This document shows, piece by piece, positions 1 to 13,470 of a stretch of DNA of 14,426 nt. The DNA lies in IMG/VR virus record IMGVR_UViG_2850796239_000001; one strand, given 5' to 3'. The stretch is from a virus (lineage: Duplodnaviria > Heunggongvirae > Uroviricota > Caudoviricetes). Within the stretch, counting starts at the first letter, position 1; the number at the start of each line of letters is the position of its first letter. Under the pieces are notes generated by a model. It was not told the origin of the DNA. It searched no databases and worked only from the letters and a program-made list of their open reading frames with translations. A program made the translations under genes and the position numbers.

Positions 1-240
1 TTATCCGTCCTGATTTTGCATCCACTCCACCACAAAATCAGCCAGCCCCCCAACATCATTAATATCCAGTAACGCGACATCAAGATTAAGTGACACATCA
101 CTGGCTACAGCAATAACATGTCTGTCTATCACTAATTCTTCCGGTCGATGTCCGGCTCCATCGCGAAACAGCACAATCTTTGCGATCTCTTCATGCTTAA
201 ACCCTTCGACCAGAATCAAATCCAGCTTTGAGGTATCCAT
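1..240 (-). CDS. mobB: MobB (molybdopterin-guanine dinucleotide biosynthesis adapter protein), C-terminal fragment; gene interrupted by prophage insertion
   Basis: Minus-strand ORF ending at TAA (rc of 1..3). Translation MDTSKLDLILVEGFKHEEIAKIVLFRDGAGHRPEELVIDRHVIAVASDV... matches the C-terminal part of enterobacterial MobB as I recall it. In-frame similarity continues upstream of the Met to ~264 (..DLHFLASR), then ends at stop codons (265..267, 271..273 on the minus frame). Confidence 0.8.
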   Translation of the reverse strand: MDTSKLDLILVEGFKHEEIAKIVLFRDGAGHRPEELVIDRHVIAVASDVSLNLDVALLDINDVGGLADFVVEWMQNQDG

Positions 241-282
241 TCGACTTGCGAGAAAATGTAGATCCTATGACTAGGTAATTTA

Positions 283-414
283 TTCAAGATAACCGGGAAG
301 AGATTAAAAAAGACGGGATTTGGTTGGATTCAATAACTTAGCTACTAGTTGTATTCAAGATAAAATGGGCAAGGGCCGTTTAGTTTGTTCAGAACAATAA
401 AACATTCAAGATAA
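283..414 (+). repeat. Three direct copies of TTCAAGATAA near the prophage left end; candidate transposase end-binding sites (attL L1-L3 analogues)
   Basis: Exact 10-mer at 283..292, 354..363 and 405..414 in AT-rich non-coding DNA between the prophage end and the repressor gene. A related GATTCAATAA lies at 327..336, and AACCGGGAAG at 291..300 resembles AACCGGGAGG in the Mu left end. Confidence 0.4.
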
Positions 415-508
415 AGCGTCTTGTTTATTTTGACCTTTTAAAGGCTTTTAAAACTAGCTTATCAGAAGTTGTAGAAATGGACCAAGTAAGTTAAGCACAG
501 CTAGCTGA

Positions 509-1015
509 TTATATGCTAACTGCCTTGTTGGTTAGTTGGATGAGATCGGCCTCAGCTTCATTTCCCGCCAAAATCTCTCTAACCTTTTGTTCTGACAGGT
601 TATTTAGGCTTAAAGCAGCTAATCTTCGAATACCCGTTAAACTAATCAACTCTTGGTTTTCTTGGCTGCAAAATTCGAGCAACTTTTCAACACCTTTTCG
701 TTTGAGCGTATGGATCACGATCTCTTTTTCTTGTTCGCTTAGAGAATCCATTATTTTCATTAACTCATTAGCTTTTGAGGCCTTGTTTGATGGTTTGGTT
801 GCTGTTTGCAACTGACCGCTAACAATTGCAGCGACGTGTTCAGGCAAGTCTTGCAATCGGTACGCAAAGGCCCTTCCTCTAACTCCGGGTGTTGTAACTG
901 AACGTTTTTCCCACCCCTCATTTCTTGCTCGCTTATGGAGTCCTGCAAGGGATGTGGGTAAACCGCCAACACCGAGGAGTTCACTAGCAGGCACCCATTC
1001 TTGATCTTGGATCAT
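509..1015 (-). CDS. Mu c-like repressor
   Basis: 168-aa ORF divergent from ner/A. Start ATG (rc of 1013..1015) is preceded by GGGAGG (rc of ~1022..1027). N-terminal motif WVPASELLGVGGLPTSLAGLHKRARNEGWEKR is shared with the transposase N-terminus (WVPMTELASFCGLPSSLAGLHKKAKKESWQTR), as in Mu where c and MuA share a DNA-binding domain. Confidence 0.75.
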   Translation of the reverse strand: MIQDQEWVPASELLGVGGLPTSLAGLHKRARNEGWEKRSVTTPGVRGRAFAYRLQDLPEHVAAIVSGQLQTATKPSNKASKANELMKIMDSLSEQEKEIVIHTLKRKGVEKLLEFCSQENQELISLTGIRRLAALSLNNLSEQKVREILAGNEAEADLIQLTNKAVSI

Positions 1016-1146
1016 ATCAACCTCCCAATGAAATTAACCAGTTGATATTTACTTAGTTAATATCTAATATTCCAACCACACACAGTTGAGTAACTCTCGT
1101 GAGTTACACGCATGAGTCATAGAGTTTGCCATAGAAAGCGCGTGGG
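1016..1146. promoter_or_regulatory. Divergent early promoter/operator region between repressor and ner
   Basis: Intergenic position matches the Mu operator region. Nested inverted repeats TTAAC(1034..1038)/GTTAA(1056..1060) and GATAT(1044..1048)/ATATC(1060..1064); dyad GTAACTC(1090..1096)-tcgt-GAGTTAC(1101..1107). No promoter assigned. Confidence 0.4.
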
Positions 1147-1401
1147 GTGTTAATCGTGATTTTAGGTGAGGATTGGGATTCCGCTGATATCAAGGCTGAG
1201 CTTGAGAAGCGTGGTACTAATTTGTCTCGCTTATCGAGAGAAAATAATTTAAGGCCAAGAACGTTAGGTAATACTTTGCGAGTCCCCTATTTAAAGGGAG
1301 AAGGGATTATTGCGCAAGCTATTGGAGTTCAACCAGAGGTTATTTGGCCAACCAGATATGAACGTCGCTCACGGAGGAAAAATGTGGGTTCCAATGACTG
1401 A
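1147..1401 (+). CDS. ner: Ner-like DNA-binding protein (Ner/Nlp family)
   Basis: Translation ..EDWDSADIKAELEKRGTNLSRLSRENNLRPRTLGNTLRVPYLKGEGIIAQAIGVQPEVIWPTRY.. aligns with Mu Ner (..RDWHRADVIAGLKKRKLSLSALSRQ..PKGEQIIANALETKPEVIWPSRY). Start is uncertain (GTG 1147 or GTG 1156). Stop TGA at 1399..1401 overlaps the transposase start. Confidence 0.85.
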   Translation: MLIVILGEDWDSADIKAELEKRGTNLSRLSRENNLRPRTLGNTLRVPYLKGEGIIAQAIGVQPEVIWPTRYERRSRRKNVGSND

Positions 1402-2056
1402 ATTAGCTTCATTTTGTGGATTACCTAGTTCACTTGCGGGTTTGCATAAGAAAGCTAAAAAAGAGTCATGGCAGACACGTCTTAAAGCTGGGGTTAAGGG
1501 ACGTGTTGTTGAGTGCGAAATAAACTCTTTACCTATTGTTATTCAAAAGGCACTGCGTGAACGCTATGTGGCACAGTTGGTGGCTACAGAGAACAATGTT
1601 TCTGAAGTGAAAGCTGTTACCAGAAAAACACGCAATCCTGATGCTGTCCAGGCAATCGAAGCATATCGCGGTTCGCCACAACTGATGGAAGAACGCCTGA
1701 ATGCGCTGACCGAAAACCAGCGTCGGGTATCTGAAGCAAGGGCTGCGCTGGTGGTGGAAGTGCTGAAGCTGGAAAGCGCCGGTAACCTCGGGCGACTGAA
1801 AGCCATTAACTTTCTTGTTGAAAAAGCCCGTAAAGGTGAGCTGCCGGAGCGCCTGCAACAGGCCGCAGTTAACGCCAATGCAAAACGTGGCGCTAATCGT
1901 ACTATCAGCCGCGATCCACTTTACCAGTGGGTTCTGAAATACAACCAGTCGCAGAACGCCGCCGAACGGCTGCTGTTACTGGCACCGGGAAAACGCGACG
2001 AAATAAAACCGGAAGAAATCAGCTGGCTGCCTGAATTTCTGGCGCAGTATCGCTAG
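1382..2056 (+). CDS. MuA-like transposase, N-terminal DNA-binding portion, ending at an in-frame TAG
   Basis: ATG at 1382 is preceded by GGAGG (1374..1378). The ORF-track start at 1310 overlaps ner and lacks an RBS. Ends at TAG 2054..2056, in the same frame as the next ORF. Confidence 0.8.
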   Translation: MWVPMTELASFCGLPSSLAGLHKKAKKESWQTRLKAGVKGRVVECEINSLPIVIQKALRERYVAQLVATENNVSEVKAVTRKTRNPDAVQAIEAYRGSPQLMEERLNALTENQRRVSEARAALVVEVLKLESAGNLGRLKAINFLVEKARKGELPERLQQAAVNANAKRGANRTISRDPLYQWVLKYNQSQNAAERLLLLAPGKRDEIKPEEISWLPEFLAQYR

Positions 2057-3466
2057 GTGAACGGCAGACCCATGTCAGAAGCCTACGAGGATTTTGTCGC
2101 AGAATGGCAGCGTCGCCATGCGGACGAACCGTACATGCTGGAGGTGATGCCTTCCTATGATGTTGTCCGGTATGCCATGAAAAAACTGCCGGAAGTGGTG
2201 AAACAAAAAGGGCGCGTTACCGGCAGTGAATACCGTCAGCTTGAAGGATTCACCCGCCGCGACTGGACAGCTATGCCGGTGAATTATGTCTGGATTGGTG
2301 ACGGTCACGGTATGAAGCTGAAATGTGCGCATCCGATCCACGGGCGTCCATTCTCACCGGAAGTCACGTTTGTGATCGATGGTGGAACACGGTTTGTTGT
2401 TGGCTGGAGTCTTGACCTTGCCGAAAACGTGTTCGCCGTTGCCGGTGCGATACAGCACGGCATTCGCAACCACGGAAAACCGTTCCTGTATTACTCGGAT
2501 AACGGTTCCGGTGAAACGGCTGACATGCTGGACAAAGAGGTCGTGGGTATTCTGCCACGCCTGGGGATTAAACACCCTACCGGTATTGCCGGTAATCCAC
2601 AGGGACGCGGCATTATTGAACGCCTGAACCGGACACTGCCGATGCGTATAGCCAGGAGGTATCGCACCTATTTTGGCAAGGGTGCTGACCGGGAATCGTT
2701 GCGTGTACTTAACCGTGATCTGCGTTCAGCGTTTAACTCCCTGCAACAGGACAAGCCTCTGAACGACCGCCAGAAAGCGGCAATGCGCGAGCTGCCATCG
2801 TGGGCGGAGCTTATTGAGGCTATTCGTGAAGGCGTGGAATGGTACAACAACCGCCCGCATTCTGAGCTGCCGATGAAACCGAACGGACGGCATTACAGCC
2901 CGGCAGAGTTCAGAAAAAAACGCCTGGCAGAAGAAGACACCGAAATTGAGTGGCTGAGTGATCTTGAGCTGCGCGACATGTTCCGCCCAATGGTGGAACG
3001 ACCGGTAAGACGCTGCGAAATTCAGTGGCTGAACAATATTTACTACGCGCCGGAGTTGCGTGACGAACACGGTCGCAAAGTGCTTATCAGTTATGACATT
3101 CATGACGCCGAGCGAATTACGGTACGTCGCAAGGACGGCAGCTTTATCTGTGAGGCGATATGGAACGGCAATAAACGCGCAGCCTTTGCTGTCAGTGCTG
3201 AATATCACAAACAACAGCAGCGTATTAAAGGAATGCGCAAACGCGCTGAGGAAAAAATTCGTGATGCTGAAGATGAAGGTATTCAGATTCTGGAACACAA
3301 ACAGGCTGAACCCTGGCTGAGTAATGTTTATCGCCCGGTTGGTAATGTGGTGGCAGTTCAGCAACCGGAATATGAAGAAGAGCATGACGAAGAATTTGAA
3401 CGCGATTTCCGGCTGGGGATGCAAAAACTTTTTGCCATGCAGGAAGAAGATGATCCGCTGGCCTGA
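2057..3466 (+). CDS. MuA-like transposase, DDE catalytic core and C-terminal portion
   Basis: Same frame as 1382..2056 (both coordinates are 2 mod 3), directly after the TAG. Contains DDE-type motifs VWIGDGHGMK, YYSDNGSGE and AGNPQGRGIIER typical of Mu/retroviral-integrase-fold transposases. Combined length is ~695 codons, close to MuA (663 aa). Confidence 0.85.
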   Translation: MNGRPMSEAYEDFVAEWQRRHADEPYMLEVMPSYDVVRYAMKKLPEVVKQKGRVTGSEYRQLEGFTRRDWTAMPVNYVWIGDGHGMKLKCAHPIHGRPFSPEVTFVIDGGTRFVVGWSLDLAENVFAVAGAIQHGIRNHGKPFLYYSDNGSGETADMLDKEVVGILPRLGIKHPTGIAGNPQGRGIIERLNRTLPMRIARRYRTYFGKGADRESLRVLNRDLRSAFNSLQQDKPLNDRQKAAMRELPSWAELIEAIREGVEWYNNRPHSELPMKPNGRHYSPAEFRKKRLAEEDTEIEWLSDLELRDMFRPMVERPVRRCEIQWLNNIYYAPELRDEHGRKVLISYDIHDAERITVRRKDGSFICEAIWNGNKRAAFAVSAEYHKQQQRIKGMRKRAEEKIRDAEDEGIQILEHKQAEPWLSNVYRPVGNVVAVQQPEYEEEHDEEFERDFRLGMQKLFAMQEEDDPLA

Positions 3467-3474
3467 ATAAAAAA

Positions 3475-3496
3475 ACAGTCCGCGGGAACGGACTGT
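3475..3496 (+). other. Stem-loop in the A-B intergenic region
   Basis: ACAGTCCG(3475..3482)-cgggaa-CGGACTGT(3489..3496), followed by TTAAATAAA rather than a U-run; not a canonical terminator. Confidence 0.25.
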
Positions 3497-3541
3497 TAAA
3501 TAAAGGAAACAAAGCTGATTTGAAATAACCGAGGAAATACT

Positions 3542-4108
3542 ATGACTGATATTGATGATGTTTTCAACACTATTAACGCTTTGATTAACGAGGGCGACAA
3601 GTCTCAGGAAGATATTGCTGATGAAGCCGGAATGTCTCCGGCAACACTCTCGGCTCTGCGTAAAGGAGAGTACAACGGTAATGTCGAAGGTATGCATGAC
3701 AAATTACAGAAATGGTATCAGGTCTGGCAGAAGGGACAGAACTTGTCAGGTACCCCTGGTGTTGTGAAGACCCAGACATTTTGTGATTTGCATGAGCTGT
3801 TTAAAACAGTGCGCTCACTCGGGATTATCAGTGTCGTTGTTGGCGTACCGGGTGTCGGAAAAACCTTTGCTGCCCGGGAATATTGTCGCAGGACAGCTAA
3901 TGCCTGGATGGTGACTCTTGCTCCGGCACATTCGAGCGTAACGGAATGCCTCCTTGAAATAGCATATGCGCTGGAAATTAATAATCCGGGAAGAAATAAG
4001 GGGAATGTAACCCGCGCCATTCGCAGAAAACTGGGTGGTGGTAAAGAAACCAGTGGCCGTGTTAACCCCCTTCTGATTATTGATGAAGCTGAGGTGTACT
4101 GGCAATAG
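3542..4108 (+). CDS. MuB-like transposition ATPase, truncated after the Walker B motif by IS insertion
   Basis: ATG 3542 with GAGGA (3531..3535). Walker A GVPGVGKT and Walker B LLIIDEA. Aligns with Mu B (..GNPGVGKTEAAREY.. LVIIDEAD..). The last codons (EVYWQ, stop) are encoded by the IS terminus starting at 4090. The ORF is 188 aa against ~312 aa for Mu B. Confidence 0.85.
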   Translation: MTDIDDVFNTINALINEGDKSQEDIADEAGMSPATLSALRKGEYNGNVEGMHDKLQKWYQVWQKGQNLSGTPGVVKTQTFCDLHELFKTVRSLGIISVVVGVPGVGKTFAAREYCRRTANAWMVTLAPAHSSVTECLLEIAYALEINNPGRNKGNVTRAIRRKLGGGKETSGRVNPLLIIDEAEVYWQ

Positions 4109-4132
4109 CGGACACTACCATTTGTTCTTTTT

Positions 4133-4819
4133 TTAAGCAGCCATCTGATGATATTTTTCCCTGAAGGCTGCCGGGGAGATATTCCCCAGACGAGAGTGAC
4201 GACGCTGACGATTGTAGAAAATCTCAATGTATTCCCGTATTACTGAGATGGCTTCATCCCGGTTATTAAAACGATAGTGGCTCAGGCTCTCATTTTTCAG
4301 CGTTCCCCAGAAGCTTTCCATCGGAGCGTTGTCGTAACAGTTACCTTTACGCGACATTGATGTTTTCAGACCAAACTGCTCCTGTATGACCCGGTAATCG
4401 TATGCGCAGTACTGTGAACCTCGATCAGAGTGGTGGATTAGCCCGGCAGGTGGGCGCTGGCTCCTGAGCGCCATAAACAGGGCTTTACCTGTCAGCTCTT
4501 TTGTCATGCGCTCTCCCATGGCGTAGCCGACAATTTCGCACGTATAAACATCTTTGATGCCAGCGAGGTACAACCATCCCTCCTGTGTGGCAACATACGT
4601 CAGGTCCGCCACCCAGACCTGATTTGGTGCTGTAGGAGCGAACGTCTGGTTCAGCAGATTTGGCGCAACTGGCAGATTGTGGTTCGGGTTCGTAGTCGCT
4701 CTGAACTTGCGTTTCTGCTTACAGCGTAGCCTTAGCTCCTTACGAAGACGTGCCAGTCGGTCACGACCAACGATGATGCCATTCTCTGCCAGCTCCGTCT
4801 GGAGCCGCCCGGGTTCCAT
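4133..4819 (-). CDS. IS3-family transposase OrfB, C-terminal catalytic part (frame-disrupted copy)
   Basis: 228-aa ORF containing the IS3-group DDE core (..WVADLTYV.., HHSDRGSQY, SMSRKGNCYDNAPMESFWGTLKNE). It is out of frame with the orfB N-terminal segment at 4761..4952. Confidence 0.85.
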   Translation of the reverse strand: MEPGRLQTELAENGIIVGRDRLARLRKELRLRCKQKRKFRATTNPNHNLPVAPNLLNQTFAPTAPNQVWVADLTYVATQEGWLYLAGIKDVYTCEIVGYAMGERMTKELTGKALFMALRSQRPPAGLIHHSDRGSQYCAYDYRVIQEQFGLKTSMSRKGNCYDNAPMESFWGTLKNESLSHYRFNNRDEAISVIREYIEIFYNRQRRHSRLGNISPAAFREKYHQMAA

Positions 4820-4952
4820 ATGTTTCGCGAGTGCGGATATGTGCCACCTTAATCTCCAGTTTTAGCCGCTCATCACTTTGTTTTCTGTCTGAGGGTTCAT
4901 GCTGTACCCAGTTGTAATAACCGCTCCTGGATACACCAAATACCTGACACAT
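4761..4952 (-). CDS. IS3-family OrfB N-terminal segment, separated from the rest of orfB by a frame change
   Basis: MCQVFGVSRSGYYNWVQHEPSDRKQSDERLKLEIKVAHIRTRETYGT then out-of-frame tail. It lies in the -1 frame relative to orfA, as expected for programmed frameshifting, but +1 relative to 4133..4819. Confidence 0.5.
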   Translation of the reverse strand: MCQVFGVSRSGYYNWVQHEPSDRKQSDERLKLEIKVAHIRTRETYGTRAAPDGAGREWHHRWS

Positions 4953-4987
4953 CGCTTCAATGGGAAATTGTTGTCGCCATTGTTCGA

Positions 4988-5250
4988 TTAACGCGTATTT
5001 TTCAGCGACTCCTGTGCAAAATACGCTGTTGCTTTTTTTAATATATCTCGCTCAAGGCGAGCTTCATTTAACGCCTTACGCAGTTGCAGAATTTCAGATT
5101 CCAGTTCAGCCACCGTGCGGGAACCAGGAGTACCGAGCCCTTTTCTGGCGGCGGTAACCCATTGTCCTAAAGTGCCTTCAGGAAGGGATAATCGGGAAGC
5201 GCCTTCACTGATCGAAAGTTGATTTTCAAGAACCGTTCTGACAGCTTCGG
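4988..5250 (-). pseudogene. IS3-family orfA, 3' portion; the 5' portion (codons 1-15) lies at 8006..8052 on the other side of the IS66-family insertion
   Basis: Manual minus-strand translation ..VRTVLENQLSISEGASRLSLPEGTLGQWVTAARKG..LERDILKKATAYFAQESLKNTR* continues the MSRKTQRYSKEFKAEA fragment. A-run slippery site (A7 at rc of ~5033..5039) lies near the orfA end. Confidence 0.75.
5243..5250. repeat. 8-bp target-site duplication (GCTTCGGC), left copy, flanking the IS66-family element
   Basis: Identical 8-mer at 5243..5250 and 8006..8013 immediately outside the element's terminal inverted repeats. Confidence 0.9.
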
Positions 5251-5283
5251 CGTAAGCGCCCCGAGAAGTACGTAGCGTAAGGA

Positions 5284-6885
5284 TTATTTTACAGACGAGA
5301 AGTTCCAGGGCAGCAGTTCATGCACTTGGTTCGACGGCCAGTCATTGAGCTTCTCGATCACTTCGCGCAACCAGTCCTCCGGCTCCACTTCGTTCTGTTT
5401 GCAGGTGACCAGCAGACTGTAGATGATCGCCGCACTTTCTCCTCCCTTGTCTGAGCCGAAAAAGAGATAATTTTTTCTTCCAACCGCCACCGATCGTAAC
5501 GCGTTTTCACCGATGTTGTTGTCTATTTCCACCCAGCCGTCACGACAGAACTCGTTCAGCGCATTCCAGTGATTCAGGATATAGTCGAACGCCTTCGCCA
5601 TCTCCGCATGTTTCGACAGCGTTTTCCTCTGCAATTGTATCCAGTCGTACAACGACTGCATCAACTGGACGCTTCTGGCTTTTCTGACTGCAAGCCGTTC
5701 CTCTGCCGGACTGCCACGTATCTCCGCTTCTATGTCGTATAACTCTGCTATCCGTCTGAGCGCTTCCTGAGTCATTTCTGTCGGACGGCGCACATCCTCG
5801 TCATGGATTTTTCGGCGGGCGTGGGCCAGGCACCCGGCTTCCTTCACCCGGCCCGTTTCGTACAGTACGTTATAACCTGCATAGGCATCAGCCTGCAGTA
5901 CGCCCTGATACTTTGCCAGGTGGAGCTGCGGATGTTCTCCTTTGCGATCTGCCGAATACGCGAACCAGACGGCTGCCGGCAGGGATGAACCCGCATTACG
6001 ATCATCCCTGACGTATACCCACAGACGACCCGTTTTCGTCTTTCCGTTCCCCGGGGCCAGTACTTTCACCGGAGTGTCATCTGCGTGCACCTTTCCTGCC
6101 TCCAGAACATAGTCATTCAGCGCTATATACAGAGGACGGAGTTTGTCTGCCATTTCTGATACCCAGCGCACCATGGTATTACGGCTCAGCTCCACGCCCT
6201 GTCGCGCGTATATTTCTGACTGGCGATATAAAGGGATATGTTCCATATATTTGCTGACCAGGATCCGTGCAAGTAACCCTGCACTGGCATAACCGCGTTC
6301 GATCGGTTTAGGGGGAAGTGGTGCCTGAACGATGACATCACACCGGCTACAGGCCAGTTTGGGACGTATGGTTTCGATAACTTTAAAGGCGGTATTAATG
6401 ATATCCAGTTGCTCTGAGATTGTTTCCCCCATTTCTTTCAGAACACCTCCACAGGCCGGGCAACTGGTTTCAGCAGGCAGAAGGCGATGTGTCTCCCGGG
6501 GAAGTTCTGCCGGCAGCGGTTTTCGTGAAGATTTTCGTCCCGGGGATTCAGGCTTACTGGCGATCGGGTTTTCTGACGGGGGACTGGTGTCAGGTGAATC
6601 TGTGACTGACGATGCATCTTCCAGAAGATTTCTGGCTGTGTTCAGCCGGTTTTCCAGTTCCGACAGTCGTTTTTCTGCCTGTCGGATCTGATTTTCAAGC
6701 TTATGACGCTTTTTCTCTGAACTCTGGCCGAACAACATACGACGCAACCTGTCGAGTTGCGCTTTCAGCCGTTCAATTTTCTGCTCATAGCCCGCGACCT
6801 GACAGGCATACTGTCGAAGCCGACTCTGTTGCTTACGCAACATGGCTTTAAGCAGCTCAATATCATCGGGGAGTTCATTGTTCAT
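5284..6885 (-). CDS. tnpC: IS66-family transposase TnpC
   Basis: 533-aa ORF with N-terminal coiled-coil/leucine-zipper-like region, a CxxC...CxxC zinc-finger region (SCPACGG ... CSRCD) and a large catalytic domain typical of IS66 Orf3. Confidence 0.9.
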
Positions 6886-6904
6886 TCCCTTGTTTTATCA
6901 CGGG

Positions 6905-7252
6905 TTATATCCGGATGCCAGGCCGTTCTGTCCGTTTGGGATGTTGCCACGCGATCCCCTCCAGTAGCATGGATAACTGAGCTGGCGTCAGGTGCACTTT
7001 CCCTTCCCGGGTCACCGGCCAGACGAAGCGGCCCCGTTCCAGGCGTTTGGCGAACAGGCATAACCCGTCACGATCGGCCCACAGTATTTTCACCATTTTG
7101 CCACTGCGGCCCCGGAAGACGAAGATATGCCCGGAGAACGGGTCATCTTTCAGCGTGTTCTGCACCTTCGAAGCCAGGCCATTGAAGCCACAACGCATAT
7201 CTGTGATGCCAGCGATGATCCAGATTTTGGTACCGGTCGGCAGCGTTATCAT
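6905..7252 (-). CDS. tnpB: IS66-family TnpB (Orf2)
   Basis: 115-aa ORF (MITLPTGTKIWIIAGITDMRCGFNGLA...) typical of IS66 Orf2; its start overlaps the tnpA stop as ATGA at 7249..7252. Confidence 0.9.
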   Translation of the reverse strand: MITLPTGTKIWIIAGITDMRCGFNGLASKVQNTLKDDPFSGHIFVFRGRSGKMVKILWADRDGLCLFAKRLERGRFVWPVTREGKVHLTPAQLSMLLEGIAWQHPKRTERPGIRI

Positions 7253-7923
7253 CGGATACCCCCTTTCATTTCGCGGATTAGCGCCCGTAACAGTTCCGGA
7301 GTGAGAGGGTCAAACAGTTTTACCACACCTGATTTAAGATGCAGCTCGCACCGTGGGACGTTTCCGGGAGCCCCCTCAGGGCGCTCATCATGCTTGTTAC
7401 GCCAGAAGGGATTTGTAACTGGTCTGGTCGGCTCCGGCGTATCAGTCAGTGCCACCGGGACAGGCATGCATTCCTGTATGTCATCATCGCTCAGTAAGCC
7501 GTCCTCGTACTGGCTTTTCCATTTAAACAGCAGGTTATTATTGATATCGTGTTCTCTGGCGATCCGGGCAACAACAGCCCCAGGCTGTAACGCCTGCTTA
7601 GCCAGACGGACCTTAAATTCACGGCTATAGCTGGTTCGCCGTTCTTTTCGCCATGAGCCTTCTCTGATTTGAGGCTCTGTTAATTCCTTCTTTCTGTTGG
7701 CATAAAGGATGGCGTCAAGTTGAGCGAATGAAACTGAATCGGGCAATGGCCATGCGATACCGGATGCAAGAAATCGCTGAAAAAGCGTATGTATTGTGGA
7801 ATGACTGAGACCCAGACGCTGAGCGATGGCCCGGATGGTCAGTTTATCTTCAAATCTTAAACGCAGGGCATCAGGCAAATAAGAACGGAAGCAGGGAATA
7901 TCTTTTGTTGTCTGGGAATTCAT
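7249..7923 (-). CDS. tnpA: IS66-family TnpA (Orf1) with N-terminal helix-turn-helix extension
   Basis: 224-aa ORF with HTH-like segment LTIRAIAQRLGLSHSTIHTLFQRF and the IS66 Orf1-like motif RRTSYSREFKVRLAKQALQPGAVVARIAREHDINNNLLFKWKSQY. Confidence 0.85.
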   Translation of the reverse strand: MNSQTTKDIPCFRSYLPDALRLRFEDKLTIRAIAQRLGLSHSTIHTLFQRFLASGIAWPLPDSVSFAQLDAILYANRKKELTEPQIREGSWRKERRTSYSREFKVRLAKQALQPGAVVARIAREHDINNNLLFKWKSQYEDGLLSDDDIQECMPVPVALTDTPEPTRPVTNPFWRNKHDERPEGAPGNVPRCELHLKSGVVKLFDPLTPELLRALIREMKGGIR

Positions 7924-8005
7924 CGTTCGTGTCCATCAATATAGATGGGCGCGATTGTTGCCAGACAGGACAATTTTCACAAGACGTCGCTGATGGGGCG
8001 CTTAC

Positions 8006-8013
8006 GCTTCGGC
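8006..8013. repeat. 8-bp target-site duplication (GCTTCGGC), right copy
   Basis: Identical to 5243..5250; it lies within IS3-family orfA codons K-A-E-A (rc GCCGAAGC). Confidence 0.9.
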
Positions 8014-8212
8014 TTTGAACTCTTTAGAGTAACGTTGGGTTTTTCTGCTCATTATTAGCTCCTTCTGATGCCATTCTATTTCAGGAAGGAGTGTCCGTTA
8101 AACTCAGGCTACCTCATCATTCCTGACCGTATTGCCTTTCTGGTGGTGTTAACCCGCCCGGACAAAACCACACTCAGAATCGAAATCACCCGTCGATGGG
8201 AGGCCACCATTA

Positions 8213-9861: not shown

Positions 9862-10959
9862 ATGTTTTATGTGGATAACCCGACGGGTGTGCCGGTAATG
9901 CCACCTGTCGCGGCTGAATTAAGCAAAACAACGCTTTATTTCACCGAAGGCGGGAACGGTATTCCGCCCACGTATCCGGGGCCGGACTGGTTTAATATTA
10001 TTCAGTCTGAATTACTGGAAATACTCCGGCAGGCAAATATCAAACCGGATAAAAACACAACCGACCAGATTATGACAGCGCTGAAAAAACTGTTTATTAC
10101 GAACAGTGGTTCAGCCGGAGCTATTGCCGGATTAACCGGTCAGAATAATATGTTCCCGTATTTTACCGGCAAAGACACAATGGCATTAACGCCGCTCAGT
10201 GCTTTTGTTCGCGGTATTCTCGGAAAAAACAGCGCCAGCGATTTTGTTAAAGACATCGGAGCAGGCCGTGCTTTCAGTGGTTCTGTAAGTATTGGTGGCG
10301 ACAGTGGAGCCTGGACGACGGCGCAGTTTATTGACTGGCTGGATTCACAGGGAGCATTTAACCATTCTTACTGGATGTGCAAAGGCTCCTGGGCTTATGC
10401 GGGCAATAAAATCATCACCGATACCGGCTGCGGCAATATTCAGTTGGCCGGTGCAGTTGTTGAGGTAATGGGCGTCAAATCAGCCATGACCATCAGGGTG
10501 ACCACACCAACAACGGCCACGAACGGCACGACAAGCTCACAGTTCACCTACATCAACCACGGAGACGCCTACTCTCCCGGATGGCGACGTGAGTACAATA
10601 CCAGAAACAAACCAACAGCATCGGACGTGGGGGCACTCCCCGCAAACGGTAATGCGGTCTCAGCAACCAGACTCCAGACTGCCCGCAGGATTAACAATGT
10701 GCTGTTTGATGGCCCCCGCGATATCACCATCAACACCACCGAGCCCGGCGCTGTGCGTAATTTCCAGTACACCAATGAGGTGTTTTACAACCCGGGCAGT
10801 ACCACAATTACCTGGAGGTTTCGCGCACCTTCTGGCTGCCAGTTGTCAGGCATTTATGTCCAGGATACGGGAAAAAATACAGCAGACAATATCGGTGGTG
10901 TGTATTACAAACAGGCTCAGATTTATATCAATGGCGCATGGCGCTCTGTATCCGGTTAA
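9862..10959 (+). CDS. Tail fibre protein (Mu S-like)
   Basis: ATG 9862 with GGAG upstream. N-terminus MFYVDNPTGVPVMPP... resembles the Mu/P2-type tail-fibre N-terminal domain as I recall it; followed directly by a Tfa/U-type assembly gene. Confidence 0.75.
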   Translation: MFYVDNPTGVPVMPPVAAELSKTTLYFTEGGNGIPPTYPGPDWFNIIQSELLEILRQANIKPDKNTTDQIMTALKKLFITNSGSAGAIAGLTGQNNMFPYFTGKDTMALTPLSAFVRGILGKNSASDFVKDIGAGRAFSGSVSIGGDSGAWTTAQFIDWLDSQGAFNHSYWMCKGSWAYAGNKIITDTGCGNIQLAGAVVEVMGVKSAMTIRVTTPTTATNGTTSSQFTYINHGDAYSPGWRREYNTRNKPTASDVGALPANGNAVSATRLQTARRINNVLFDGPRDITINTTEPGAVRNFQYTNEVFYNPGSTTITWRFRAPSGCQLSGIYVQDTGKNTADNIGGVYYKQAQIYINGAWRSVSG

Positions 10960-10973
10960 TTAAGGAGAAAATA

Positions 10974-11504
10974 ATGGAACTCAGAAATGTTACGCGTTAT
11001 TACCCTGAAGGTATGCCTTATGGTGAAGGCATTCAGTATTTCCGCAGTGAAGACGGGCAGGACTTTTATGAATCCCTGGATAAATTCACGAAGAAATACA
11101 AGCTGTGCACGCATCCTGAAACCGGCGTGATTTATTCGATGGCGGAAGACGTATCCCGTCTTTATCCCGTTGGTTTTACCATTGTGGAAGTGGATGAACT
11201 GCCGGAAGGCTTTGGCATTGAAGTCTGCTGGTATTATAAAAACGGCGAAGTTCTTCCTGTTCCTGTTGATTATTTGCGGCTGGCAGAAAAACAGCGCCAG
11301 AGCCTGCTGAATGAAGCAAGGGACATCACCTCCGACTGGAAAACCGAGCTGGAGCTGGGCACCATCAGCGACGATGACAAAGCCCGTCTTACACAGTGGA
11401 TGGCGTATATCAGGGAGGTAAAGACACTGGATTTAAGCACCGTTACTGACGAAGCCTCCTTTAATTCCATCAACTGGCCGGAGCGTCCCGATGCCGCAGC
11501 TTAA
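10974..11504 (+). CDS. Tail fibre assembly protein (Mu U / Tfa family)
   Basis: ATG 10974 with TAAGGAG (10960..10966); the ORF-track start at 10938 is upstream of the RBS. C-terminal motif ..GTISDDDKARLTQWMAYIREVKTLDLS.. matches the conserved Tfa/U motif (Mu U ..GIISDENKQKLTEWMLYAQKV..). Confidence 0.85.
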   Translation: MELRNVTRYYPEGMPYGEGIQYFRSEDGQDFYESLDKFTKKYKLCTHPETGVIYSMAEDVSRLYPVGFTIVEVDELPEGFGIEVCWYYKNGEVLPVPVDYLRLAEKQRQSLLNEARDITSDWKTELELGTISDDDKARLTQWMAYIREVKTLDLSTVTDEASFNSINWPERPDAAA

Positions 11505-12543
11505 AGGTGTGATAAAAACGCCCACGGGAGAACCGCTGGGCGGCGCAACCATTACACTGACCTCCCTGCACAATCGTGCAGGGATCCTGAAAAGTGTTTT
11601 CAGCCACGTCACCACACAGAGTGGAGAGTACGACTTCCCTGTTCTGCCGGGCGTGTACAGCGTTCGTCTGACACAGAGTGCACAGTGCCTTTCAGAAATC
11701 GGTGTCATCCGCGTTTATGAAGATTCAACGGACGGTTCGCTGAATGATTTTCTGGGCGCAACTGATATTGACCTGCGTCCGGAATCCCTGAAGAAATTCG
11801 AAGAGCTGGCGCAACAGGCGCAGCAGAGCGCCGGGGCCGCAGCCGGAAACGCACAGCAGACGGCGCAGGATGTGGCGGCAGCCGCAACGGCCCGTGATGA
11901 TGCACAACGTTTTGCGGAGAAAGCCCGACAGGATGCAACCGTCACAGCTGAGGACAGAAAGGCCACTGCGGAAGATGTGACAAGCACAGGAGCAAATGCA
12001 GCCGCAGCCGGACAGAGCGCACAGGATGCCGCAGGTTATGCCCGCGCAGCAGAACAGGCCAAAAATGACATTGATGCTGCGCTGACCGGCACTCTGAAAA
12101 TGGCTAACCATCTGTCAGAAATCGCAGCAGCAGGCGAAAAGGCACAACAGAAGTCCCGGGATAATCTGAGGCTGAAAAGTGCGGCCACGATGGAAGCACA
12201 GAGCGACATTTACGACCGGACAAAAGGCCGTCTGGCGATACCCGGCGCATTCGGCTTTGGGTGTGCTTTTCTGCCTGAAGATGTTATCCGTTTTGACACT
12301 AAGAGTGATTTCCTGGCCTGGGTAAGGAATGCGCTGCCAGGTGAATATTCCGTTGCTGGCCCCTACGGCATCATCATACCCGACACACGGTTTGAAGGGG
12401 GGCTCAGCATCCGGTGGACTGATGCACGCCCTGAGACAAGGGAACCGCGGTACAGAGCCAAATCCCTTACTTTTTACGGCATTAACGGCCCCATTTATCA
12501 CACCCGCTACTGCTACTGGCCCATATCCAGACTGACTGGGTGA
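11491..12543 (+). CDS. Side tail fibre protein (lambda Stf-like N-terminal domain with Ala/Gln-rich shaft)
   Basis: N-terminus ..KGVIKTPTGEPLGGATITLTS...GVYSVRLTQ...IRVYEDSTDGSLNDFLGA.. parallels the lambda Stf N-terminus (..SGVLKDGTGKPVQNCTIQLKA...GQYSVILQ...ITVYEDSQPGTLNDFLCA..). Followed by an AQQ/AAA-rich repeat region and the ..LSEIAAAGEKAQQKSRDNLRL.. motif common in fibres. Confidence 0.75.
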   Translation: MPQLKGVIKTPTGEPLGGATITLTSLHNRAGILKSVFSHVTTQSGEYDFPVLPGVYSVRLTQSAQCLSEIGVIRVYEDSTDGSLNDFLGATDIDLRPESLKKFEELAQQAQQSAGAAAGNAQQTAQDVAAAATARDDAQRFAEKARQDATVTAEDRKATAEDVTSTGANAAAAGQSAQDAAGYARAAEQAKNDIDAALTGTLKMANHLSEIAAAGEKAQQKSRDNLRLKSAATMEAQSDIYDRTKGRLAIPGAFGFGCAFLPEDVIRFDTKSDFLAWVRNALPGEYSVAGPYGIIIPDTRFEGGLSIRWTDARPETREPRYRAKSLTFYGINGPIYHTRYCYWPISRLTG

Positions 12544-12893
12544 AAATAAATATAGCCACAGAAGATATTATTTACAGAATCGTGGCGAGCTCTGTCCGCA
12601 ACAGATGGGGAGACCCTGACATTGGCGGGCTGATTATTGCTGCGTACCAGGGAAAAGCTGACGGTGATAAAGACATCAGACTTGTCAGGGGGCGGTCATA
12701 CAGAGGCTCACGACTGGGACCGGTGGGGATTTCAGCGCCCTGTACTCCCACCGGAACGCATATAGTATACCCACAATATTTCATTACGGGATGTTCAGAG
12801 CATTCATTACCGGGGTCATATTGCGCCCTGTCCGGGGTGCCGGATACATATGTCTCTGGCGCAATGCTTGGGCTTTTTATTCGCACATCGTGA
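12540..12893 (+). CDS. Hypothetical ORF of uncertain reality (possible fibre distal fragment or accessory gene)
   Basis: GTG-initiated 117-codon ORF overlapping the Stf stop (GTGA) and the next gene's start region. No recognisable family; the C-terminal half has atypical composition. Confidence 0.25.
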   Translation: MKINIATEDIIYRIVASSVRNRWGDPDIGGLIIAAYQGKADGDKDIRLVRGRSYRGSRLGPVGISAPCTPTGTHIVYPQYFITGCSEHSLPGSYCALSGVPDTYVSGAMLGLFIRTS

Positions 12894-12903
12894 GGAATGC
12901 ACT

Positions 12904-13470
12904 GTGGAAATTAAAAAAATCATTAATCCCCGTTATACCGAAAGTGGCGCAGTAGACTGTGACGTTTTTTTTGACGACAGGGACCAGGCAGTCCCCTACA
13001 CAGCCACCGCTGATGATGTCGCTCCGACGGGTCAGCAAATCTGGCAGGAACTGCAAAGCGGCAAATGGGGTGAGATAGCCCCATTCACTGTGACACCAGA
13101 AATGCTGGAAGCGGCCAGAGAGGCCAGACGTCAGGAAATTGAAGCATGGCGCACAGAACAGGAGGCGAAGCCGTTCACGTTTGAATGGAACGGTCGTATC
13201 TGGAATGCTGGCCCCGACTCACTGGGCCGCCTGTCCCCGGTAGTCATGCTGGCAAAATCTGTCACAGCACAAACACATATGGCGTGGAGCGATGCGGATA
13301 ATCAGCAGGTGCAGCTGACGACGCAGGAACTTGAGGAACTGGCCACAGCGATGATGCAGGCCATTGTTGAGCGCAACGATGAGATTTATCGCTGTCAGCG
13401 GGAGATGAAAGAACAACTTTCTCTGTTGCCCACACTGGACGAGGTGAGAGCGTTCAGACCAGGCGATTAA
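12904..13470 (+). CDS. Putative tail fibre assembly/chaperone protein (second, non-U type)
   Basis: ORF 12850..13470 in the track; preferred start GTG 12904 with GAGGAA (12892..12897). Position immediately after a fibre gene; the C-terminal region resembles prophage tail-fibre chaperone-like proteins, but this is a weak call from memory. Confidence 0.5.
   Translation: MEIKKIINPRYTESGAVDCDVFFDDRDQAVPYTATADDVAPTGQQIWQELQSGKWGEIAPFTVTPEMLEAAREARRQEIEAWRTEQEAKPFTFEWNGRIWNAGPDSLGRLSPVVMLAKSVTAQTHMAWSDADNQQVQLTTQELEELATAMMQAIVERNDEIYRCQREMKEQLSLLPTLDEVRAFRPGD

Follow-up and report, generated by a model that had tools for sequence, protein, structure and literature searches.

A full-length ISSfl3 interrupts orfA of a resident IS600 copy in a defective Mu-like prophage of a Shigella-type chromosome

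The locus described here raises the question of how one insertion sequence came to lie inside another, and whether the inner element arrived by a single direct transposition, was brought there by recombination between separate IS copies, or only appears to lie there through an error of assembly. The window, i.e. the whole stretch of 14,426 nucleotides that was analysed, is 100% identical over 14,108 bases to the complete chromosome CP026875.1, which is closed and has a size of 5.16 Mb. The host locus, on a Shigella-type chromosome, is a Mu-like prophage that has decayed and become defective; a nonsense codon lies in its Mu-type A gene. No RNA family was found when the whole window was scanned against Rfam at gathering thresholds. 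It is almost certain that a full-length ISSfl3 inserted itself by transposition into an IS600 copy that was already resident in this prophage, at codon 16 of the IS600 orfA.

The ISSfl3 copy is complete, with a length of 2754 bp (5252..8005, minus strand), and its genes are co-oriented with the genes of IS600. The terminal inverted repeats consist of 11 perfect nucleotides at each end and begin with GTAAGCG; the tnpC-distal end is GTAAGCGCCCC (5252..5262), the tnpA-proximal end is the reverse complement of it (7995..8005), and only sporadic matches between the two arms occur further in. The repeat search gave a perfect inverted repeat of 13 nt (5250..5262 and 7995..8007), in which the 2 nt beyond the element, GC, belong to the inner edge of each target-site duplication. 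The boundary of the element was set inside this 13-nt repeat because other ISSfl3 copies begin at GTAAGCG. Directly outside the ends lies the octamer GCTTCGGC, on the left at 5244..5251, where it covers codons 14-16 of IS600 orfA on the minus strand, and on the right at 8006..8013; these are the only two occurrences on the plus strand of the whole window. The initial annotation had described an 8-bp duplication around inverted ends, and both are present, although it placed the left copy one base too low (5243..5250); its right coordinates were correct. The left edge also agrees with many E. coli records, in which the IS600 homology ends precisely at 5251 (query 1..152). The termini of 15 other ISSfl3 copies examined are identical to the ends of 5252..8005, and perfect 8-bp duplications of unrelated sequence flank six of them (GCATTATC, GACTTCCC, AATGAATT, GAAACAGC, CCTCATTC and CATACATC). 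ISSfl3 copies occupy many different sites, several of them with fresh duplications. A target-site duplication of 8 bp, as found around 5252..8005, is characteristic of the IS66 family, and functional members of this family that were captured experimentally are multi-ORF elements of 2.7-2.8 kb with 8-bp duplications (PMC3281130).

The coding content of the element leads to the same family. The tnpA-tnpB-tnpC set had been proposed to be intact with an ATGA overlap, and this is borne out by three full-length ORFs on the minus strand. The tnpA gene (7249..7923) encodes an accessory protein of 224 aa with two helix-turn-helix regions (PF01527, 2.1e-23; PF13384, 7.7e-10), which reaches 283.9 bits against NF038385 (IS66_access_TnpA; cut-off 150). 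The tnpB gene (6905..7252) encodes an IS66 accessory protein of 115 aa that is identical to the consensus and matches PF05717 (5.4e-39) and NF033819 (125.6 bits; cut-off 50). The tnpC gene (5284..6885) encodes a DDE transposase of 533 aa with leucine-zipper, zinc-finger, DDE and C-terminal domains (PF03050, PF13005, PF13007 and PF13817); it matches PF03050 with 2.5e-101 over profile positions 2-283 of 284, and NF033517 (transpos_IS66) with 467 bits (cut-off 180). The IS66-family similarity of the three ORFs, which the initial annotation had left to be checked, is thus far above the curated Pfam and NCBIfam cut-offs in every case. The tnpA/tnpB overlap is ATGA at 7249..7252, the gap between tnpB and tnpC is 19 nt, and the two accessory genes precede tnpC in the same orientation, as is the layout of the IS66 family. 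According to Han et al. 2001, IS679 and other three-ORF elements of the family (ISEc8, ISCro1) reportedly have the order tnpA-tnpB-tnpC with a tnpA/tnpB overlap, measure about 2.5-2.8 kb and duplicate 8 bp of target, and their DDE TnpC contains a zinc finger and a leucine zipper. The features of the IS66 family, as in IS679-type three-ORF elements, are confirmed in PMC3281130.

At the sequence level, the three-ORF IS66-family elements IS679, ISEc8 and ISCro1 are different elements from the copy in the window, and other E. coli relatives of the family have at most 93% identity to 5252..8005. The 2754-bp ISSfl3 copies of Shigella and enteroinvasive E. coli match this interval with 99.7-99.9% nucleotide identity at 100% coverage; NCBI's pipeline labels these copies 'IS66-like element ISSfl3 family', and the pCP301 record calls them 'ISSfl4'. 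As judged from these alignments, 5252..8005 is the catalogued ISSfl3. It shares with the ISSfl3 of Shigella flexneri ('ISSfl4 ORF1-3', pCP301 AF386526) the 2754-bp length, the termini GTAAGCGCCCC...GGGGCGCTTAC and the tnpA, tnpB and tnpC products of 224, 115 and 533 aa, and it differs from the consensus of eight ISSfl3 copies by three substitutions.

The enclosing element is an IS600 in two parts, both on the minus strand. The first part (4090..5251) contains the last 84 codons of orfA together with the whole orfB, and was identified by alignment to canonical IS600, by the Pfam families rve, rve_2 and rve_3, and by NF033516 (transpos_IS3). The second part (8014..8116) contains the right inverted repeat, the region upstream of orfA and the first 13 codons of that gene, whose start codon is 8052..8050. 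The inverted repeats of IS600 (4090-4116 and 8090-8116) are imperfect, with TGAGG...CCTCA. The insertion had been noted as splitting an IS3-family orfA after about codon 15; the break is located within codon 16, and the remaining stump is MSRKTQRYSKEFKAEA followed by TAA, a stop codon that comes from the GTAA of the ISSfl3 end at 7995..8005. The in-silico removal of 5252..8013, suggested as a check of this reading, gives back a continuous IS600 of 1265 bp with a 100-aa orfA, and at the junction its alignment to canonical IS600 continues unbroken. The comparator, a canonical 1264-bp copy annotated as 'IS3-like element IS600 family transposase, programmed frameshift', has the same 100-aa orfA, the same orfB in the -1 frame and the same terminal repeats, and the excised IS600 differs from it in only 2 of 1264 positions, neither of them within 400 bp of the junction. 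One is a substitution (A>G at 4687), and the other is an extra C within a C-run at about 4806-4808, which results in a +1 frameshift in orfB. In addition to these two changes, the window copy departs from canonical IS600 in the cut at codon 16 and in the absence of a 3-bp duplication. After excision, the element is about 1.26 kb long, has TG...CA ends, and carries orfA in frame 0, orfB in frame -1 and an rve DDE domain, which are the features of the IS3 family. The reverse nesting, IS600 into ISSfl3, was ruled out because ISSfl3 is contiguous and complete and IS600 is the split element.

The IS600 copy itself has no 3-bp target-site duplication, since its flanks are AGC (4087..4089) and TCA (8117..8119). 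One side adjoins a truncated B gene and the other a gp46-family gene at its 3' end; strain VL40 has an intact prophage, 99% identical, in which the two flanks are 24,198 bp apart. The missing duplication, together with this distance, points to deletion or recombination after the insertion and is not an argument against membership in the IS3 family. IS600 apparently marks a 24.2-kb deletion of the prophage. The initial annotation had placed the IS3-family element into B, which holds for the side with truncated B but is incomplete for the side with the gp46-family gene. It had also placed the phage into mobB, and here the support covers the left junction and does not extend to the right one. Its order of events, prophage, then IS600, then ISSfl3, stands, but it left out the deletion at IS600.

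The left junction recurs in another genome. A contig of S. boydii ATCC 9905 (L004; GCA_000193915) contains the same mobB/prophage/B'::IS600 left junction with an uninterrupted IS600, in which the target octamer occurs once (5753..5760 of the contig), and its right flank is different from that in the window. It probably represents the same IS600 copy without ISSfl3. As a draft contig running across a multi-copy IS, L004 could be a chimeric assembly, but the rare G at 4687, which the two IS600 copies share, argues against this. The nested IS600/ISSfl3 junction was found in one assembly only and in none of the 5,426 complete E. coli genomes searched, and an exact-pattern scan with a 38-mer of the left junction gave no match in a contig collection with one genome per species. 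The only two-part match, FDAARGOS_943, was rejected because its arrangement differs, with ISSfl3 located within another IS66-family element beside a truncated IS600.

Could the nested structure have been formed other than by one direct transposition? That separate copies of IS600 or ISSfl3 underwent homologous recombination, with ISSfl3 ending up, for example, between two different partial IS600s, is extremely improbable, although the insertion sequences of Shigella recombine often, the other nine of the 15 ISSfl3 copies examined have no matching duplications, and the flanks of the enclosing IS600 are non-contiguous and, on the right, not those of the same IS600 in S. boydii. Put together, the two IS600 halves nevertheless make up one exact IS600, and the octamer stands on both sides of the insert, which would otherwise have to be a coincidence, the chance probability of an 8-bp match at fixed positions being 1.5e-5. 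It is just as hard to believe that the repeats were mis-joined during assembly and that the cell has no such nested structure. Mis-assembly does not yield a precise 8-bp duplication around complete inverted repeats, and the source chromosome is closed. These two points weigh against the facts that both elements are multi-copy repeats, that the junction comes from a single assembly, that short-read contigs of related samples end at the left end of IS600, and that the extra C of orfB lies in a C-run, as is typical of long-read indel errors.

For the direct transposition of ISSfl3 into the resident IS600, we hypothesize that the DDE transposase TnpC integrated the element via staggered cuts 8 bp apart, and that repair of these cuts would have left the octamer duplicated. 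TnpC of the IS66 family depends on TnpA and TnpB as accessory proteins, and this would presumably apply to the present copy as well. The insertion reduces OrfA of IS600 to a stump of 16 residues and abolishes the OrfAB transposase, so that this IS600 copy is unable to move on its own.

The ISSfl3 copy is potentially autonomous because it has kept both ends and all three reading frames, and it may be active at present. Its three differences from the 8-copy consensus are a synonymous change in tnpC (5635), TnpC E36K (6780) and TnpA D129N (7539). In the gene-position index, the exact TnpC sequence occurs at no second locus, and therefore the copy in the window has no detectable progeny. Its exact TnpB and TnpA sequences each recur at ten or more loci, and the ten listed for each belong to other genomes. 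We consider it rather unlikely, but well worth weighing, that the copy is structurally complete and yet functionally dead or non-autonomous, a fossil instead of a recent and still active element. The two missense changes would fit this, E36K being private to the window copy, as would the lack of its TnpC at other loci and the many clearly defective relatives, e.g. those in CP026836.1 with a 5-bp duplication that splits tnpC at at least seven sites. On the other hand, the ORFs are all full-length, both ends are the same as in other copies, E36K lies within the N-terminal coiled-coil region and outside the Pfam DDE domain (residues 198-483), and D129N is common to ISSfl3 copies at many sites. 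The tnpC-defective derivatives, with a length of 2759 bp and the 5-bp duplication ACTGC, are spread over at least seven chromosomal sites of a related genome. As a speculation with little probability behind it, the window copy may be among the few autonomous sources of ISSfl3 in its lineage and could hypothetically provide TnpC in trans to 2759-bp derivatives such as those known from the related genome, and read-through from the promoter of the co-oriented IS600 orfA might boost its expression.

In Shigella-type genomes, IS copies number in the hundreds, and it is normal for one to be inserted in another (PMC7373316). The nesting of ISSfl3 in IS600 is an already known kind of feature, ordinary in Shigella genomes. 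When the Shigella virulence plasmid loses its type III secretion island, a pair of ISSfl3/ISSfl4 copies is the most frequent cause (PMC5629016). Copies of ISSfl3/ISSfl4 are thus of practical importance as recombination substrates; the window copy is chromosomal, and no phenotype is assigned to it. The value of the present locus is mainly in annotation, as one further IS-in-IS insertion in a Shigella-type genome. It identifies one structurally complete copy of ISSfl3 and allows the steps in the decay of one Mu-like prophage to be put in a clean relative order.

The insertion sequence ISSfl3 (window 5252..8005) carries three genes on the minus strand, namely tnpA (7923..7249, 224 aa, with two helix-turn-helix regions), tnpB (7252..6905, 115 aa, matching PF05717), which forms an ATGA overlap with tnpA, and tnpC (6885..5284, 533 aa), which starts 19 nt past tnpB. 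Their assignment to the IS66 family in the initial annotation was confirmed by Pfam matches and by the NCBIfam equivalog cut-offs for IS66 TnpA, TnpB, and TnpC, which were exceeded by all three proteins. The IS66 DDE domain of Pfam was spanned over its full length in the TnpC match (2.5e-101), and the IS66 zinc-finger, leucine-zipper, and C-terminal domains were also identified in TnpC. End-to-end alignment of the 2754-bp element gave 99.7-99.9% DNA identity to copies from enteroinvasive E. coli (chromosomes and plasmids) and from the virulence plasmids of Shigella flexneri and S. boydii. These copies are labelled 'IS66-like element ISSfl3 family' by NCBI's pipeline, whereas the original record of pCP301 designates the same 2754-bp element as 'ISSfl4 ORF1-3', and usage of the two names is therefore not consistent. 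In its multi-ORF layout, length, and 8-bp duplication, ISSfl3 is similar to the experimentally captured IS66-family elements, which are 2.7-2.8 kb long, contain multiple ORFs, and have an 8-bp duplication (PMC3281130).

Two copies of the octamer GCTTCGGC are present on the plus strand of the window, one at 5244..5251 and the other at 8006..8013. The inverted end GTAAGCGCCCC is located just inside the left octamer (5252..5262) and its reverse complement just inside the right one (7995..8005). The 8-bp duplication proposed earlier was therefore found in both copies with the right coordinates unchanged, while the left coordinates had been placed one base too low; comparison with other copies showed GTAAGCG to be the true start of ISSfl3. 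A repeat search of the window scored the terminal inverted repeat as a 13-nt perfect match, because the octamer starts and finishes with GC. The termini were identical in all seven other ISSfl3 copies compared, three of which lie between perfect 8-bp duplications whose sequences are unrelated (GCATTATC, GACTTCCC, and AATGAATT), and three further perfect 8-bp duplications were found among the ISSfl3 copies of a related chromosome. Thus, the 8-bp duplication is a signature of ISSfl3, and the duplications compared had no obvious consensus. By deleting 5252..8013 from the window, a 1265-bp element with imperfect terminal repeats was obtained (4090..8116), which differed from the canonical 1264-bp IS600 of E. 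coli CFSAN029787 (annotated as 'IS3-like element IS600 family transposase, programmed frameshift') only in A>G at window 4687 and an extra C at about 4806-4808. The junction was seamless against canonical IS600, and orfA, which in the interrupted state has 16 codons followed by a TAA contributed by the ISSfl3 end, returned to a continuous 100 aa with the N-terminus MSRKTQRYSKEFKAEAVRTVLENQ. Since excision restored both IS600 and its orfA, the nested-insertion reading withstood the attempt at refutation and is correct. OrfA and OrfAB have been lost from this IS600 copy but its ends are intact, so it could be mobilised only in trans.

The Mu-type B protein is truncated a few codons into IS600; as a marker unique to this locus, it was used to find a natural empty site. 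An exact look-up of this protein retrieved the complete 5.16-Mb chromosome CP026875.1, with 100% identity to the window across 14,108 bases, and several draft contigs, including AERN01000031 of Shigella boydii ATCC 9905 (PMC6397287). This contig matches window 1..5251 with no mismatches and one 1-base gap, and 8006..8116 at 100%. The two matches share exactly 8 bp, and therefore the contig has the same mobB/prophage/B'::IS600 junction (B' being the truncated B gene), together with the G at 4687. It contains the octamer once and lacks both ISSfl3 and the extra C. This puts the insertion of ISSfl3 later than that of IS600, in the source strain's own lineage, and suggests that the extra C, if real, is also late. 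The extra C lies within a C-run of orfB, frameshifts the IS600 transposase, and is also missing from canonical IS600; it could be either a genuine mutation or a homopolymer error of a long-read assembly. To the right of IS600 (5864..6971), the contig carries the terminase small-subunit gene of another prophage and not the Mu-like baseplate genes, owing either to a rearrangement mediated by IS600 in ATCC 9905 or to a chimeric draft contig. A chimeric join retains some small probability, as the sequence is of draft quality, passes through a multi-copy IS, and differs in its right flank.

The window begins with the 3' part of mobB (1..262, Pfam MobB), matched in all 5,426 of 5,426 E. coli genomes searched. 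The mobB fragment stops at the left end of the prophage (about 263-266), and the remainder of mobB, like the right end of the prophage, is outside the window. The Mu-like prophage, a remnant that starts at about 263, contains repressor-like and Ner-like genes followed by A and B, and the baseplate J/gp47, gp48, tail-fibre, com, and mom genes are located to the right of IS600. In the gene of the Mu-type transposase A, an in-frame TAG nonsense codon (2054..2056) replaces the CAG present in the prophages of VL40 and RM9088, leaving two ORFs of 248 and 469 aa. The tail-fibre region (9862..13470) is unlike that of phage Mu in that neither a gin invertase nor an invertible G segment separates the tail-fibre genes from com/mom, and DNA similarity to Mu, D108, and SfMu was found only at the com-mom end (87-88%). 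An Rfam scan of the whole window gave nothing further. By comparison with the complete, 99% identical prophage of enteroinvasive E. coli VL40, the window lacks 24,198 bp (4679..28877 of the VL40 record), from B codon 183 (4089) to the last ~35 codons of a gp46-family gene (8117). IS600 is situated exactly at the deletion junction (4089/4090 and 8116/8117), and its flanks, AGC and TCA, are not a 3-bp duplication. The initial annotation placed the IS3-family element as an insertion into B; IS600 does adjoin truncated B, but with 24,198 bp missing and no 3-bp duplication it was not simply inserted there. Two thirds of the prophage were removed by an IS600-associated deletion or by recombination between two IS600 copies. 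The relative order proposed earlier stands, and it is secure that the prophage entered mobB, then IS600 the prophage, and then ISSfl3 IS600.

In line with established knowledge of DDE transposases and the IS66 family, TnpC would cut at the GTAAGCG termini and join the ISSfl3 ends to a target whose strands are cleaved 8 bp apart, and repair would then generate the 8-bp duplication. The accessory proteins TnpA and TnpB are reportedly required in IS679. The genes of ISSfl3 run in the same direction as those of IS600, so transcription from the IS600 promoter might read through into tnpA. Compared with the consensus of eight copies, the window ISSfl3 has three substitutions: a synonymous one at 5635, TnpC E36K (6780), which falls in the coiled-coil part at the N-terminus and not in the DDE domain (residues 198-483), and TnpA D129N (7539), which is also present in other copies. 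The exact TnpC sequence was found at this single locus among indexed gene positions, and the TnpA and TnpB sequences in thousands of assemblies. The copy is structurally intact and little diverged, but it has at least one missense change of its own, and no daughters were detected among indexed gene positions. It may still be active, as proposed earlier, but this is a guess, if a reasonable one.

A 2759-bp variant of ISSfl3 has a tandem 5-bp duplication, ACTGC, at the equivalent of window 5899, just before the TnpC LQADAY motif, which splits tnpC into ORFs of 348 and 187 aa. It occupies at least seven different sites in the chromosome CP026836.1, with perfect 8-bp duplications at three, and was also found on an invasion plasmid of enteroinvasive E. 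coli (CP119444.1). A derivative with a defective tnpC thus seems to have proliferated, with intact copies like the one in the window presumably mobilising it in trans. ISSfl3 is often nested, as in E. coli FDAARGOS_943, where it lies inside tnpC of another IS66-family element and inside tnpA of another element, and its insertions into other IS66-family elements have perfect 8-bp duplications. Conversely, ISSfl3 copies on invasion plasmids are broken by IS600 or ISEc11. Shigella chromosomes contain 229-348 IS copies (PMC7373316). Both ISSfl3 and IS600 are catalogued elements, and their nesting is an ordinary feature of an already known kind.
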